A stretch of DNA of 58,762 nucleotides, taken from an uncultured Gammaproteobacteria bacterium. Its GTDB lineage: Bacteria; Patescibacteriota; Microgenomatia; UBA8517. The stretch lies in assembly GCA_964587425.1 (NCBI GenBank), contig CAZPLB010000003.1, positions 1-58,762 on the forward strand, read 5' to 3'. The notes beneath the pieces were generated by a model. That model was not told the DNA's origin and made no database searches. It saw nothing but the letters and a program-made list of their open reading frames with translations. A program made the position numbers and the translations under genes. Shown one piece after another: positions 11,030-18,240 of this stretch. Position 1 is the first letter of the stretch. Each line of letters starts with the position of its first letter.

Positions 11030-11803
11030 ATGCTGCCCAAGGTATTTTTACTATATATAGCGCTCGTTTTAGTCTCTTTTCTGCGACCCACAGGGGTTTT
11101 AGCCCAGACTGAGCTCACAGGCCTTGCCGTATCAACACCAATATCTGAAACAGAGGCCAAAAACGGAGATTTAATATGCTCAGAAAAGGATCTTTACATT
11201 CTTTGTAAAACTGAATACGCACCCTCTATTTATGGGGTAATTAACGAAAACCCATCGGCAGCAATGGCCACAGACACTCAAGGCTTTCATCCTGTAGTAA
11301 CAACAGCAACTGCAAAGGTAAATGTCTCCTCCAAAAACGGCAACATAGCTCTAGGAGATTTTATAACAACTTCAACTACTCCAGGTGTTGGGCAGAAGGC
11401 AACCAGAAATGGCTTTGTAGTTGGGTTAGCGCTTGAAAATTATGAATCAAATGACCCAAACGCAAGTGGAGCCATATTTGTAGCCATAAATCCTCGCGCA
11501 ACAATCGAAATAGTGGAAAGTAAGAGCACAAATCTCTTGGACTTAATCCGTGAAGGTCTAAGTGCACCAGTTCTAACGCCCCTTGCAACAATTAGATACC
11601 TTAGTGCTGCCTTGGTAGTGATTGTTGCACTAGTTATCGGACTGATATACTTTGGTAGGGTTGCAAAGGCAGGGGTTGAGGCAATTGGTAGAAATCCACT
11701 TTCAAGTAGAGTGATACAGTCTGGTGTATTTTTACATGTATTCCTGACAATTGTAGTTGTAGGAGTAGGGCTTGCCATAGCATACTTAATCTTAACTCTT
11801 TAA
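11030..11803 (+). CDS. Membrane protein: signal peptide, IMC/peptidase-G2-like outer domain, C-terminal ATP synthase subunit-c-like hairpin without the carboxylate
   Basis: GDFITTSTTPGVGQKAT..GFVVGLALE resembles the neighbour's IMC domain; YLSAALVV..GVEAIGRNP..LAIAYLIL aligns to AtpE YMAAAVMM..FLEGAARQP; ORF also has GTG 11021. Confidence 0.65.
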   Translation: MLPKVFLLYIALVLVSFLRPTGVLAQTELTGLAVSTPISETEAKNGDLICSEKDLYILCKTEYAPSIYGVINENPSAAMATDTQGFHPVVTTATAKVNVSSKNGNIALGDFITTSTTPGVGQKATRNGFVVGLALENYESNDPNASGAIFVAINPRATIEIVESKSTNLLDLIREGLSAPVLTPLATIRYLSAALVVIVALVIGLIYFGRVAKAGVEAIGRNPLSSRVIQSGVFLHVFLTIVVVGVGLAIAYLILTL

Positions 11804-11809
11804 TTAAAT

Positions 11810-13489
11810 ATGTTTAATCTTTTCAACAAAAAATTAGTTCCAGGAAAAATTAAACCAATGGTATTAATAATTCTTGATGGTTGGGGTGTAGCCGCCCCTG
11901 GACTTAGTAATGCCATAACCCAAGCAAAACCAATCTTTTTCAACAAACTTCTCTCTCAGTATCCAAATGGCCAGCTCCTCGCTGCCGGTGAATCAGTTGG
12001 TCTCCCTGCAGGTGAAGTGGGTAATACTGAGGTAGGACACTTAAATCTTGGGGCTGGGAGAGTTATTTTGCAGGATCTTGTACGAATAGATAAATCAATT
12101 GAATATGATACATTTTTTGACAATGATGCAATTTTGAAAGCAATTGATCATGCTCGCTCAAATAATTCAAACCTGCACATAATGGGTCTTGTGGGGAGAG
12201 CTGGAGTTCACTCCTCACTAAACCATTTGTACGCAATCCTAGAAGCCTGTAAAAGAAAAAGATTGCAAAATGTATATATTCATGCATTCACGGATGGCCG
12301 TGATTCACCGCCCCAAGATTCAATAGACCTGATAAAAGAAGTCGAAGCAAAGATAAGTGTGTTGGGAGTAGGAAAAATTGCAAGTATAAGTGGGCGCTAC
12401 TGGGCAATGGATAGAGACTTTCACTGGGAACGAACAAAGGTAGTTTATGATGCATTAGTTAATGGTTTGACAGATTTTGTAGGGGAATCTACAGGAGAAT
12501 TAGTTAATGCAGCGTACAAGAGAGGAGAAACTGATGAATTCATAAAGCCCTCACTAATTACAATTAACAATAAAAAAAATACAATCTTAGATAATGATGC
12601 CTGTATTTTTTTTAACTACAGAATTGATAGACCAAGAGAGTTAACCATGGCAATGACTATTCCAAATTTTGAAGCACTCAAATCATTTGAATTTGGAAAA
12701 GATCCAGAAAAAGGAGGGAGAACAAGTGGAAGCATAAAATTTGATGCAACTTTCCAAAGAAGAAAAATTTTGAAAAACTTGTTTTTTGGAACCCTAACCC
12801 AATATGACCCAAGTATTCCAGTTAGTGCCATAGCCTTCCCTCCCGAAAAAGTAACAAATCCACTATCTAAGGTTTTGTCTTCGGCTGGAATTGCACAGCT
12901 CCATATGGCAGAAAGCGAGAAAGAACGTTTTGTGACTTACTATTTTGATGGACAAATTGAATCAGCGGTAGAAGGCGAAGAATTTCTGATCACTCCTTCT
13001 CCAAAAGTTGCAACCTACGACCTAAAACCAGAAATGTCCCTTCCCACTCAGGCTAGTGAATTTAAAAACCAACTTGCAAAAGATAAATATGCATTTTTTG
13101 TTATAAACATTGCAAATCCAGACATGGTTGCTCATTCCGGAAACATGAAGGCAACTATTAAGGCAATTGGAATAGTCGACAAATATCTTGAAGAGATGGT
13201 AACAAACATACTTTTAGTTGGTGGAACGGCGTTTATAACAGCAGACCACGGAAACGCTGAAGAACTTTTAAGCTATCAAGGAGAATCTTTTTACTTTACG
13301 ACATCAGTCGGAAAAGAAAACACAGAACATTCCAAAAGCCCTGTTCCAATAATAATTGTGAGCCAGAGCCTTTCTGGAAAACCACGTATGCTGCCGCGGG
13401 GTGCGCTAAAAGATGTTGCACCCACAATTTTAAAATTAATGGGAATACCAAAACCAGCTGAAATGTCTGGTATTAACTTGCTAGAATAA
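11810..13489 (+). CDS. gpmI: 2,3-bisphosphoglycerate-independent phosphoglycerate mutase
   Basis: ILDGWG, GNTEVGHLN, HAFTDGRD, GRYWAMDRD, NPDMVAHSG, TADHGN, TEHS motifs. Confidence 0.95.
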   Translation: MFNLFNKKLVPGKIKPMVLIILDGWGVAAPGLSNAITQAKPIFFNKLLSQYPNGQLLAAGESVGLPAGEVGNTEVGHLNLGAGRVILQDLVRIDKSIEYDTFFDNDAILKAIDHARSNNSNLHIMGLVGRAGVHSSLNHLYAILEACKRKRLQNVYIHAFTDGRDSPPQDSIDLIKEVEAKISVLGVGKIASISGRYWAMDRDFHWERTKVVYDALVNGLTDFVGESTGELVNAAYKRGETDEFIKPSLITINNKKNTILDNDACIFFNYRIDRPRELTMAMTIPNFEALKSFEFGKDPEKGGRTSGSIKFDATFQRRKILKNLFFGTLTQYDPSIPVSAIAFPPEKVTNPLSKVLSSAGIAQLHMAESEKERFVTYYFDGQIESAVEGEEFLITPSPKVATYDLKPEMSLPTQASEFKNQLAKDKYAFFVINIANPDMVAHSGNMKATIKAIGIVDKYLEEMVTNILLVGGTAFITADHGNAEELLSYQGESFYFTTSVGKENTEHSKSPVPIIIVSQSLSGKPRMLPRGALKDVAPTILKLMGIPKPAEMSGINLLE

Positions 13490-13493
13490 TAAT

Positions 13494-15766: not shown

Positions 15767-16602
15767 AAAAAGAAGTTGAGACCTTGATGCTTGTTGAGAT
15801 AATAGCCAAATCATATGCTCAAATAGCAGGCACAAGGATGAGAACCACAAGAACTAGCGTATTAAAGAGGCGCGAGTTCCTCTTTGCCATAAATGAGATT
15901 TTCGAAGAAGTCAGAAGTTCGTACAAAAGTGAGTACAAGAGTCTCTCAAAAAAATCAAAAGACAAAATTACCTTTGTCCCCAAAAATGGCAAGATAGTAA
16001 GCGTATTCATCTCAGCAAACAGTGGGTTATATGGAGATCTCGTCAAAAGGATCTCGGAAGGCTTTCTTGAAGAAGTAAGAAACCAGGGGACTGAGGCCGT
16101 AATAATCGGCAGAAGCGGTCTCTCTTACTTTGTAGAGAGTCTGAAGGATCACCCCTATACCTATTTCGACTTCCCAGATGCCAGGCTTGATAACGAAATG
16201 TTGGGTAAAATTGTAAGGCACTTGGTTGCCTACGATGAAATACACATTTTTTACGGCCAATACAAAAGTATCATTAACCAGGCACCCGTTGTATTCAAAA
16301 TTTCGTCTCAAGATGCCCTTCCGAAAGAAAAAGAGGACAAAGAAGTAGTCAAATACCTCTTTGAACCGGACTTGGAGGAAATTTTGATATTTTTCGAAAA
16401 AGAAATGTTCACCTCACTTCTTGAACAAACTCTCTCAGAGTCCCAGCTTGCAAAATTCGCCAGCCGAATGTTCTCAATGGAAGAGGCAGCCAGAAAGATA
16501 AAAGAAAACCTTGCAAAAGCCAAAAGAAGAGAAGCCCAGTTAGATCATTTTTTAGACAACAAAAAACAAACTAATTTATTTTCAAGTATGCAGCTCTGGT
16601 AA
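15748..16602 (+). CDS. atpG: F1-type ATPase gamma subunit
   Basis: [24 protein letters not shown]; located between atpA and atpD. Confidence 0.88.
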
Positions 16603-16610
16603 TTAATATT

Positions 16611-17993
16611 ATGGCAAAAATTATTTCAATAAATGGTTCAATAGTCGAAGTACAGTTTGGAGGCGGGGAAGTACACCCAAAAATTTTCAATCTTTTAAAA
16701 ACATCAAATGGCCAATTCTTAGAGATATATGCCTCAAAAAGTAACGATGTATTCTTTTGTACCAATTTAGGAGATGTCAAAGCCTTGGTAAGAGGAGAGG
16801 TTGTTGCAGACACAGGCCAGCCACTCCTTTTTCCAGTCGGAGGCAAAATGATGGGTAGAGCCGTTAATGCCTTTGGTAACCCACTTGACGGGAAAACTAT
16901 CGATGCCGAAAAATATGAACCCATAAAAAAACAGTTAAGTGAAAAAAATTCCATCAAAACAAGCCATGAAGTATTGGAAACAGGGATAAAAATAATAGAT
17001 CTCTTCTGTCCATTCTCAAAAGGAGGCAAAATCGGATTATTTGGCGGCGCCGGTGTCGGTAAAACTATACTATTGACTGAAATTCTTCATAACATTCAGA
17101 ACCCACAAAAAGAGAAACCAACACAAAATGGATGGGCATCAGTATTTGCCGGTGTTGGAGAAAGGTCCCGCGAGGCTCTGGAATTGTATGAAGTAATGAA
17201 AGCCTCAGGTGCTCTCACAAATTCAACCTTAATTTTTGGCCCAATGGGGGAAAACCCCGCTGTGAGGTTCATGTCAGGACTCTCAGCAGTAACCTTAGCC
17301 GAATATTATAGAGACACCACCAAGAAAAATGTTCTTTTTTTTATAGATAACCTTTTCCGCTTTGCCCAAGCTGGGCAGGAAATTTCAGTCTTAACAAACA
17401 CGATCCCCTCAGAGGATGGATACCAGCCAACCTTGGAAGCTGAAATGGCAAACTTCCACGAACGACTTTTTTCTACAGATGGCACATCAATTACATCAGT
17501 TGAGGCAATATATGTTCCATCAGATGACCTTCTAGATCACGCAGTACAGTCAATCTTCCCATATCTTGATTCAATAGTAGTTCTCTCAAGAAATATATAT
17601 CAGGAAGGATATCTTCCAGCCATAGATATCGTTGCATCAGGCTCAAGTACCTTAAACCCGGCAATTGTGGGCGAGCTTCATTTTGATGTGGCAACCAAGG
17701 CAAAAAGCACTATTAAAAAAGCTCAAGACTTGGAAAGAATAGTTTCCTTGGTCGGTGAATCAGAGCTTTCAGTTGACGACAGAGTCACCTACAAAAGAGC
17801 AAGGCTCCTAAGAAGATTCATGACCCAAAACTTTTTTACAACAGAAAAGCAGAGTGTGGAAAAAGGGCAATTTGTCCCAAGAGAAACTACAGTCGAAGAT
17901 ACAAAGGCAATTTTGGACGGCAAGTTTGACAGCTACCAGGAAGAAGATCTTGCTTTCATTGGCAGCTTAAAGGAAATATCAAATGGAAGATAA
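16611..17993 (+). CDS. atpD: F1-type ATPase beta subunit (divergent)
   Basis: [48 protein letters not shown]. Confidence 0.95.
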
Positions 17994-18240
17994 GGCAATT
18001 AATCTCAAAATTCAGTCAAGAGATGGGATACTTTTTCAGGGTGAAATAACATCTTTGACTGCAAAAAATAGCCATGGAACCTTCGATATCCTAAAAAACC
18101 ACGCCAATTTCATTAGTTTAGTGGGGGAAACTCTGATAATTAGGGACAAAGAAAAAATTGAAAGAGAGATGAGAGTAGAAAACGCAATTCTCAAAGCAAA
18201 AGAAAACAATGTTGAGATATATGTAGGAGTGAGATCCTGA
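17983..18240 (+). CDS. atpC: F1 epsilon subunit, N-terminal beta-sandwich only
   Basis: [16 protein letters not shown] (G.xGILxxHAP-like); 85 aa, ends without the C-terminal helices. Confidence 0.8.

Follow-up and report, generated by a model that had tools for sequence, protein, structure and literature searches.

To our knowledge, the only rotary ATPases that have been repurposed from ion coupling are those of mycoplasmas, which also keep a genuine type 1 F1Fo enzyme. The F1-like 'X0' ATPases of these bacteria are encoded by a seven-gene cluster whose products include three lineage-specific proteins, two of which are membrane proteins with 3 and 12 transmembrane helices (PMC3369863). In Mycoplasma mobile, the glycolytic enzyme PGK is bound by the motor, which is also connected to giant legs on the cell surface (PMC8406192). 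Here we describe an F1-type ATPase operon that is carried by many bacteria of the ultra-small Microgenomatia and was found in a 58,762-nucleotide (nt) stretch of DNA (contig CAZPLB010000003.1; called the window below). In this operon, the position of the rotor subunit gene atpE is occupied by a gene for a fusion protein with a c-subunit-like membrane hairpin, hereafter the c-like protein. With middling confidence, we read the encoded complex as a descendant of F1Fo that hydrolyzes ATP without coupling to ions, that is, as a non-ion-coupled F1/c-like ATPase.

Eight genes, all on the plus strand and separated by small overlaps or by gaps of a few bases, make up the operon at positions 11021-18240. 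They encode, in order, the c-like fusion protein (11021-11803; 260 amino acids [aa] from a GTG codon at 11021, or 257 aa from an ATG codon at 11030), the cofactor-independent phosphoglycerate mutase GpmI (11810-13489), a b-like protein, a delta-like protein, alpha, gamma, beta and a short epsilon subunit. A first-pass annotation of the window had noted coupled b-like, delta, alpha, gamma, beta and epsilon genes, with a c-like fusion gene and gpmI in the place of atpB and atpE. Both observations are borne out, as each of these genes was found at the expected place on the plus strand.

The alignment of the c-like family starts with a signal peptide that ends in A-Q. A beta-rich domain follows, then a short helix and two long hydrophobic helices. 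A word-indexed search yielded 314 homologues, each ∼255 aa long and each from a Patescibacteria or Microgenomates source, and an exhaustive profile search retrieved 513 cluster representatives at E ≤ 1e-30. The helical hairpin of the window protein (residues 187-259; 11579-11797, plus strand) is a true but divergent homologue of subunit c, because a profile of the hairpin, the Pfam family ATP-synt_C and structure superposition agree. Solved c subunits account for 12 of the 14 matches retrieved by the hairpin profile (best E 8e-4), and ATP-synt_C matches 15 of 21 family members, below threshold. An AlphaFold model of the protein has a predicted local distance difference test score (pLDDT) of 87.5, and Foldseek places its hairpin on F-type c subunits with a root-mean-square deviation of 1.3-1.9 Å over ∼67-71 aligned columns. 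The target-normalized template modeling score (TM-score) is 0.71-0.87 against most of the F-type c subunits listed.

Conservation along the c-like protein is highest in the loop V-E-A-I-G-R-N-P, in which E220, G223, R224, N225 and P226 are invariant (E220-A-I-G-R-N-P226 is encoded at 11678-11698, plus strand). In ordinary enzymes, the R-N-P loop of subunit c contacts gamma and epsilon. The topology of the c-like protein also matches a c subunit, in that both termini lie outside the cell and the loop lies inside.

One central feature of subunit c is lost. A membrane-embedded Asp or Glu in this subunit is required for H+ or Na+ translocation. In the hidden Markov model (HMM) alignment of the c-like family, the canonical ion-binding Glu is aligned to Val or Ile, and a mid-helix Asp or Glu occurs in neither helix of any of the 335 non-identical members. 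Six acidic exceptions are present among these 335 proteins, and all are located at cytoplasmic helix ends. By the established rotary mechanism, a c-like subunit that has no membrane carboxylate cannot carry H+ or Na+. The lost carboxylate, which went unnoticed in the first-pass annotation, is the strongest argument against ion coupling.

The beta-rich domain of the c-like protein (residues ∼33-165; 11117-11515, plus strand) is placed outside the cell by the signal peptide, by two invariant cysteines (C53 and C62) and by the topology of the hairpin. This outer domain is a disulfide-containing one. When its model was compared with the PDB by Foldseek, it resembled phage capsid decoration or cement proteins and phi29 gp12 (E 1.5e-4 to 3e-3). 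The corresponding comparison with BFVD gave phage fiber proteins and 'preneck appendage protein barrel' proteins, with E values down to 1e-11.

The F1 part of the operon comprises alpha (14327-15766; 479 aa), gamma (15748-16602; 284 aa), beta (16611-17993; 460 aa) and epsilon (17983-18240; 85 aa), all on the plus strand and all assigned by Pfam and NCBIfam to F-type subunits (gamma by Pfam ATP-synt and TIGR01146, epsilon by Pfam ATP-synt_DE_N). Alpha has an intact P-loop and arginine finger, and the catalytic site of beta is intact. The nucleotide-site motifs, called intact in the first-pass annotation, are indeed all present, including GERSRE, and their key residues are invariant in orthologues. 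These are the P-loop, the GER-RE motif, the Walker B Asp and the Arg in 68 beta orthologues, and the P-loop Lys and the arginine finger in 73 alpha orthologues. Overall identity among the alpha and beta orthologues is just 39-59%. Invariant catalytic residues at this level of identity indicate purifying selection on an active ATPase rather than decay.

Every F1 subunit nonetheless scores below the NCBIfam curated cut-off for an ordinary ATP synthase. Alpha reaches 350 bits against a cut-off of 484, and its best NCBIfam match, the canonical alpha model, gives 390 bits against a cut-off of 554. The corresponding values are 444 against 463 for beta (TIGR01039), 76.5 against 194 for gamma (TIGR01146; 88.5 bits with Pfam ATP-synt) and 37 against 67 for epsilon. 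Such scores are consistent with altered constraints on these sequences. The kinship of alpha and beta was judged by HMM and PDB scores, and in both the ordinary F-type enzymes come first. Canonical NCBIfam models outrank the alternate (N-type) and mycoplasma type 2/3 models for the F1 subunits of the window. Among PDB chains, beta scores 385 bits with a Bacillus-type F1 beta, 289 bits with beta of the M. mobile G1-ATPase and 117 bits with a secretion ATPase. The best PDB match of alpha is a Bacillus-type alpha, in which chain residue 18 aligns with query residue 3, and the N terminus of the window protein is thus ∼15 residues shorter.

The epsilon subunit consists of the N-terminal beta-sandwich only. 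Its NCBIfam matches span profile positions 2-80 of ∼130, and the C-terminal helical domain is missing. In ordinary enzymes, this C-terminal domain inhibits hydrolysis. The truncated epsilon is therefore consistent with a dedicated hydrolase.

When each GTDB species was represented by one genome, a scan detected the c-like protein in 377 genomes. The 80 best of these 377 are Woese-, Levy-, Ames- and Shapirobacteria-type metagenome-assembled genomes (MAGs), including three closed chromosomes, and the published GTDB taxonomy, where available, places them in the class Microgenomatia, orders GWA2-44-7 and Levybacterales. The complete or near-complete sequences CP055307.1, CP066686.1, OZ246419.1 and JBFOMZ010000001.1 carry the cluster. 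Many contigs of GTDB representatives with the cluster (L005, L009, L010, L012 and more in our numbering of related loci) are titled 'uncultured Gammaproteobacteria/Pseudomonadales bacterium'. The presence of a Microgenomatia cluster on such contigs implies that the organism names given in the records are either placeholders or incorrect.

Related loci were examined together with flanks of ±10 kb, amounting to 1.28 Mb in total. In 71 of 82 loci, the genes for alpha, gamma and beta come after the c-like gene on the same strand. The synteny across Microgenomates that the first-pass annotation had proposed to check is therefore kept in these 71 loci, in the form c-like-(gpmI)-(b)-(delta)-alpha-gamma-beta-epsilon. 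The remaining 11 consist of seven loci at a contig edge, two in which the gene is present and the open reading frame (ORF) calls failed the filter (L024 and L082), and L035 and L061. In the latter two, no F1 genes were found within 10 kb, though the c-like gene is kept (L061, 9881-10708; L035, 4970-5746) with an intact AIGRNP loop. Locus L061 resembles L001 from which gpmI through epsilon have been deleted, and continues with genes for an M16 peptidase, NDK, a PEGA protein and MreB.

In 35 of the 71 operons, gpmI separates the c-like gene from the b-like gene, and we infer that it is carried along as a passenger in roughly half of the lineages. Its identification is firm, since TIGR01307 scores 535 bits against a cut-off of 331 and Pfam iPGM_N and Metalloenzyme match as well. 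The window protein is 559 aa long, compared with ∼505-515 for the models, which match it in two stretches. This pattern indicates an insertion of ∼45 residues that starts after about residue 291.

The two stalk proteins are weak as single sequences, and family alignments were built for both from the related loci. The profile of the b-like family matches solved F-type subunit b (E 1.8e-9 and 9e-9), and the match starts at the membrane helix. On its own, the b-like sequence shows further weak matches to V-type E and YscL. For the delta-like protein (13915-14340, plus strand; 141 aa), the family profile matches OSCP/delta with an E value of 2.5e-5 through the C-terminal domain only, so that the likeness is confined to the C-terminal half of the protein, and the single sequence gives a weak match to the NCBIfam subunit delta.

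The b-like protein of the window (13494-13940, plus strand; 148 aa) is a soluble coiled-coil protein that has no hydrophobic segment and thus no transmembrane helix. Its gene begins 4 nt from the gpmI stop codon, which leaves no room for an upstream transmembrane helix. Almost all b orthologues (173-245 aa) start with such a helix, and the window protein aligns to the part that follows it. The short soluble form was found only in the window, L001 and L016. The first-pass annotation had described the operon as one without a membrane-anchored b. This is correct for the window and does not extend to the system as a whole, given that most relatives are anchored.

A third arrangement is found in eight loci (L026, L032, L047, L048, L049, L056, L068 and L075), from which b and delta are both absent. 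In this stalk-less clade there is no gpmI, the c-like gene abuts or overlaps alpha, and alpha is shorter (429-480 aa). The c-like stop codon overlaps the alpha start by 3 nt in L032 and L056, which implies co-translation. One of the stalk-less loci is on the closed chromosome CP066686.1. The conserved core of the system is accordingly the c-like protein with alpha, gamma, beta and epsilon, usually accompanied by a giant neighboring protein, and the stalk is optional. An optional stalk is hard to reconcile with chemiosmotic, torque-coupled ion transport, and these loci argue that neither a, b nor delta is needed for F1 and the c-like protein to work together.

Subunit a is missing from its operon position in the 71 related loci. 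A hydrophobicity screen followed by Pfam found neither ATP-synt_A nor a canonical ATP-synt_C among the multi-transmembrane ORFs of the window. The candidates tried proved to be a 7TM_transglut protein, a peptidase M50, a lycopene-cyclase-like protein, a Wzy_C protein and a CHASE2-cyclase. Within ±10 kb of 82-84 loci (1.28 Mb), Escherichia coli AtpB and AtpE probes, which have limited sensitivity, gave no matches. Random placement would be expected to produce ∼1-2 matches to a or c in this amount of sequence. In the same set of loci, a second 'alpha-like' match in L050 turned out to be the transcription termination factor Rho.

An ordinary chemiosmotic F1Fo could exist if a and a normal c were encoded elsewhere and the c-like protein helped in assembly, regulated the enzyme or formed a second type of ring. 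We regard this as unlikely. A c-like protein with such an accessory role would not be expected to occupy the atpE slot of every operon and to be translationally coupled to alpha in some, nor would its F1-contact loop be expected to be its most conserved part. Most operons do keep a transmembrane-anchored F-type b together with delta, as an ordinary enzyme would, whereas two clades have lost the b anchor or the entire stalk with F1 left intact. Similarly, alpha and beta are closest by score to canonical F-type subunits, yet every F1 subunit scores under its curated cut-off. According to one survey, the candidate phyla radiation (CPR) has a complete F-type ATPase as a rule (PMC9166423). The flanks described above gave no matches to a or c. 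The non-ion-coupled F1/c-like ATPase therefore remains the reading that we prefer. In proposing that the system is not a conventional ion-coupled synthase, the first-pass annotation is upheld by the carboxylate missing from all 335 c-like sequences, the absence of a nearby, the short epsilon and the intact F1.

Upstream of the c-like gene and divergent from it is the gene for a giant protein (5522-10969, minus strand; 1815 aa). This protein has an N-terminal, cytoplasmic MerR-type helix-turn-helix (HTH) domain (Pfam MerR/HTH_17), one transmembrane helix near residue 108 and a Thr/Gly/Ser-rich outer part. Such a combination of MerR/HTH_17, a transmembrane helix and a giant outer region is an odd architecture, and the relatives range from ∼1000 to >5600 aa. 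Residues 1485-1586 of the giant (6212-6517) share homology with the c-like outer domain (39% identity and E 4e-7 by BLASTP; E 4e-16 with the outer-domain HMM). The same HMM matches ten further large proteins in related loci, nine of which are the upstream giant, and a 778-aa protein encoded downstream in L075 is the remaining one. In 45 loci, a giant with HTH and transmembrane helix has its start no more than 900 bp upstream of the c-like gene, and in further loci a match to the giant lies somewhat farther upstream. The link to surface fibers suggested at first pass thus gains support from a conserved divergent giant that shares the outer domain of the c-like protein.

The gap between the giant and c-like genes measures ∼51-60 bp and contains a perfect palindrome (GTCAATAG-c-CTATTGAC; 10981-10997) located 12 nt upstream of the giant start codon. 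Relatives carry a different palindrome, ACATTT-N4-9-AAATGT, which occurs seven times in the 1.28 Mb. In five of these seven cases (L008 9863, L009 1984, L028 4300, L030 5112 and L080 9672), it lies 19-41 nt upstream of the giant. The palindromes could be a candidate operator for the giant's own HTH domain, which would make the giant a membrane-tethered autoregulator, or they could form a hairpin in the 5′ untranslated region. Scans for promoter and terminator consensus sequences gave matches at chance level.

A mechanism can be proposed from these features. F1 would hydrolyze ATP made by fermentation, and gamma and epsilon would transmit turning, or at least strain, to a membrane oligomer of the c-like protein. 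The outward-facing domains would then move with this oligomer. The b/delta stalk would act as the stator, which would be anchored in most lineages, soluble in the clade of the window and absent in a third clade. Work would probably be done on the neighboring giant MerR-HTH/transmembrane surface protein that carries the same outer domain, and possible outputs are the positioning, tensioning or moving of the giant for attachment. That the ATPase mechanically drives the giant fiber is a tentative proposal. Comparably speculative is the fuller picture of an ATP-driven Microgenomatia surface machine, in which F1 would turn a ring of c-like subunits and a crown of phage-fiber-like outer domains, rotating or transmitting force, would engage the giant for host attachment or movement. 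The use of glycolytic ATP and the mechanical work on fibers, as put forward in the first-pass annotation, are likewise conjectural. The product of gpmI itself makes no ATP, and its gene belongs to the operon in just 35 of 71 loci.

Several considerations weigh against this interpretation. Formation of a c-like ring is an unproven assumption, given that helix 1 of the hairpin does not have the GxGxGxG motif used in c-ring packing and that the relatives of the outer domain are trimeric. Torque resistance is a weak point of a machine that would have no subunit a and, in some clades, no stalk. In ordinary enzymes, the transmembrane-anchored b packs against subunit a, and an anchored b is kept in most lineages. 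The c-like protein may have a role independent of F1 in L061 and L035. The putative link between the giant and the c-like protein is drawn from adjacency and one shared domain, and this domain was not detected in the two complete giants of the stalk-less clade (L026 and L056). Because the searches for a and c cover the window and the ±10 kb flanks, a canonical atpB-atpE pair may sit elsewhere in the genome. More generally, the system is known here from genes and predicted structures.

Some of these points suit another arrangement, in which the c-like protein and the giant would form the membrane-anchored base of a fiber and F1 would be a tethered ATPase, not a rotor, for fiber assembly, export or remodeling, as in FliI/FliH/FliJ. 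The outer domain is common to the c-like protein and the giant, its fold relatives are located at the C-terminal ends of phage fibers, and a fiber base would account for c-like genes kept without an adjacent F1 in L061 and L035. The ATPase fits this scheme poorly. It is a heteromeric F1 with alpha, beta, gamma and epsilon and not a homohexamer, its scores with secretion-ATPase models are ∼190 bits compared with 350-440, and gamma would fill the central cavity and leave no path for a substrate. The b-like protein of the window is soluble like FliH and has the weak single-sequence matches to V-type E and YscL mentioned above, although no secretion-gate genes are found in the cluster. We judge this arrangement to be improbable, to about the same degree as an ordinary F1Fo, and continue to favor an F1 that acts on the c-like protein without ion coupling.

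Very improbable is the view that ions are still moved by an unconventional route, for example via His or Asn at the start of helix 2 or via the transmembrane helix of the giant. Position 238 of the c-like protein is mostly His or Asn, helix 1 has invariant R192 and Y193 residues at its outer end, and a fermentative cell still needs a membrane potential. Position 238, however, varies (H/N/T/Q) and is ∼six residues cytoplasmic of the canonical site, and there is no mid-membrane polar network. In addition, we know of no rotary ATPase that works without the carboxylate of subunit c. Hardly credible, finally, is a decaying ATP synthase remnant without present function, which reduced genomes, a stepwise loss (first of a, next of the b anchor and last of b with delta) and the lack of membrane ATP synthases in Ch65, of a different Microgenomates lineage (PMC7143001), might suggest, but which is contradicted by a c-like gene kept in 377 species representatives, by F1 genes kept in all loci with enough intact downstream sequence except L035 and L061, by the purifying selection evident from catalytic residues that do not vary, and a loop of the c-like protein that is conserved, at an overall alpha/beta identity of only 39-59%, and by the fact that frequent frameshifts or a ratio of nonsynonymous to synonymous substitution rates (dN/dS) near 1 were not seen.

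Other genes of the window were also identified. Downstream of the operon are genes for a PEGA-domain membrane protein (18246-19406, minus strand) and MreB (19461-20468, plus strand), and this pair is also downstream in many relatives (L003, L016, L053, L080, L081 and others), inverted in some. On the other side, a 1139-aa surface-type protein with Laminin_G_3, Big_7, Big_13 and fn3 domains (125-3544, plus strand) is encoded two genes from the giant, and a Laminin_G_3 giant is present at the equivalent place in L001. A 524-aa protein (3607-5181, plus strand) matches cytochrome P450 (Pfam E 1.1e-25), which is unexpected for a CPR genome that presumably has no respiration. Further genes encode a 7TM_transglut membrane protein (25234-25956, plus strand), an adenylate/guanylate cyclase with a CHASE2 sensor (39411-41375, minus strand) and an O-antigen-ligase-like (Wzy_C) protein with TPR repeats (56075-58030, minus strand).

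If the preferred reading is true, then the cluster represents a second, independent and much more widespread repurposing of a rotary ATPase, and it shows how an F1Fo enzyme can be converted to other use. An F1 with a defined membrane partner would offer a testable system for the function of such machines. There would also be a practical consequence for genome annotation, as an 'F-type ATPase present' entry scored from alpha and beta genes would wrongly credit Microgenomatia with a proton-motive force or ATP synthesis. The putative link with a giant surface protein bears on host attachment by episymbiont-like bacteria. In a related observation, some Saccharimonadia MAGs were reported to encode 'only the F1' (PMC9166423).

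The resemblance to canonical F1Fo is extensive. The order c, b, delta, alpha, gamma, beta, epsilon is that of atpBEFHAGDC from c onward, canonical F-type models and structures are best for alpha, beta, gamma and epsilon, and the catalytic motifs are present. The b and delta subunits are recognized by profile, and the hairpin fold of c and its R-N-P loop are kept. In contrast to canonical enzymes, the c homologue of the cluster has neither the carboxylate nor the glycine motif and carries an outer domain of ∼170 aa behind a signal peptide. There is also no subunit a at or near the cluster (in the window and within ±10 kb), gpmI is inserted, the anchored form of b is lacking in the window, epsilon has no C-terminal domain and alpha is ∼15 residues shorter at its N terminus.

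N-ATPases (atpDCQRBEFAG) are likewise divergent F-type enzymes, and the alt_F1F0 alpha and beta models give 340 and 422 bits, near the canonical ones. These scores are well below the respective cut-offs (750 for TIGR03324 and 752 for TIGR03305), and the gamma and epsilon models match weakly. The gene order of the cluster is also different, and there is no AtpQ, AtpR, subunit a or Na+/H+-binding c. The difference from FliI-FliH-FliJ is larger, in that the cluster has two paralogues, alpha and beta, and the FliI/SctN models score 126-195 bits compared with 350-444 for F-type models.

The outer domain of the c-like protein has the fold of the phage tail-spike/pre-neck-appendage barrel and cement proteins, over ∼140 columns and with E values to 1e-11. 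The likeness to phage fibers extends to the giant fiber-like neighbor, which has the same domain near its C terminus. Identity with the phage proteins is only 10-27%, and the domain is here fused to the membrane hairpin of an ATPase rotor subunit. Full-text literature searches yielded no description of the cluster or of such a fusion of a rotor subunit with a phage fold. We therefore describe the cluster as an exapted F1-like ATPase, with a rotor-subunit fusion that has no precedent as far as we found.

The closest parallels in overall design are the mycoplasma type 2 (M. mobile G1-ATPase) and type 3 (MSC_0618/0619) enzymes, which share an F1-derived ATPase, an unconventional membrane partner and a reduced, host-dependent genome (PMC3369863). 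The likeness to M. mobile also includes a glycolytic gene, gpmI, in the operon and an adjacent giant surface protein. The sequences themselves are not close. Alpha gives 323 bits with the MMOB1660 model (cut-off 600) and 212 bits with MSC_0619 (cut-off 520), and beta gives 348 bits with MMOB1670 (cut-off 850) and 382 bits with MSC_0618 (cut-off 570). The membrane partner is a c homologue with two transmembrane helices, there is no protein with 12 such helices, and b and delta are present in most lineages. The mycoplasma comparison made in the first-pass annotation consequently holds as analogy and not as kinship, because the F1 scores are closer to those of ordinary F-type enzymes. By these sequence comparisons, the origin of the cluster appears to be independent of the mycoplasma type 2/3 enzymes, and it is possible, if still doubtful, that an ATP-driven surface machine of Microgenomatia evolved as an independent counterpart of the M. 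mobile gliding motor.

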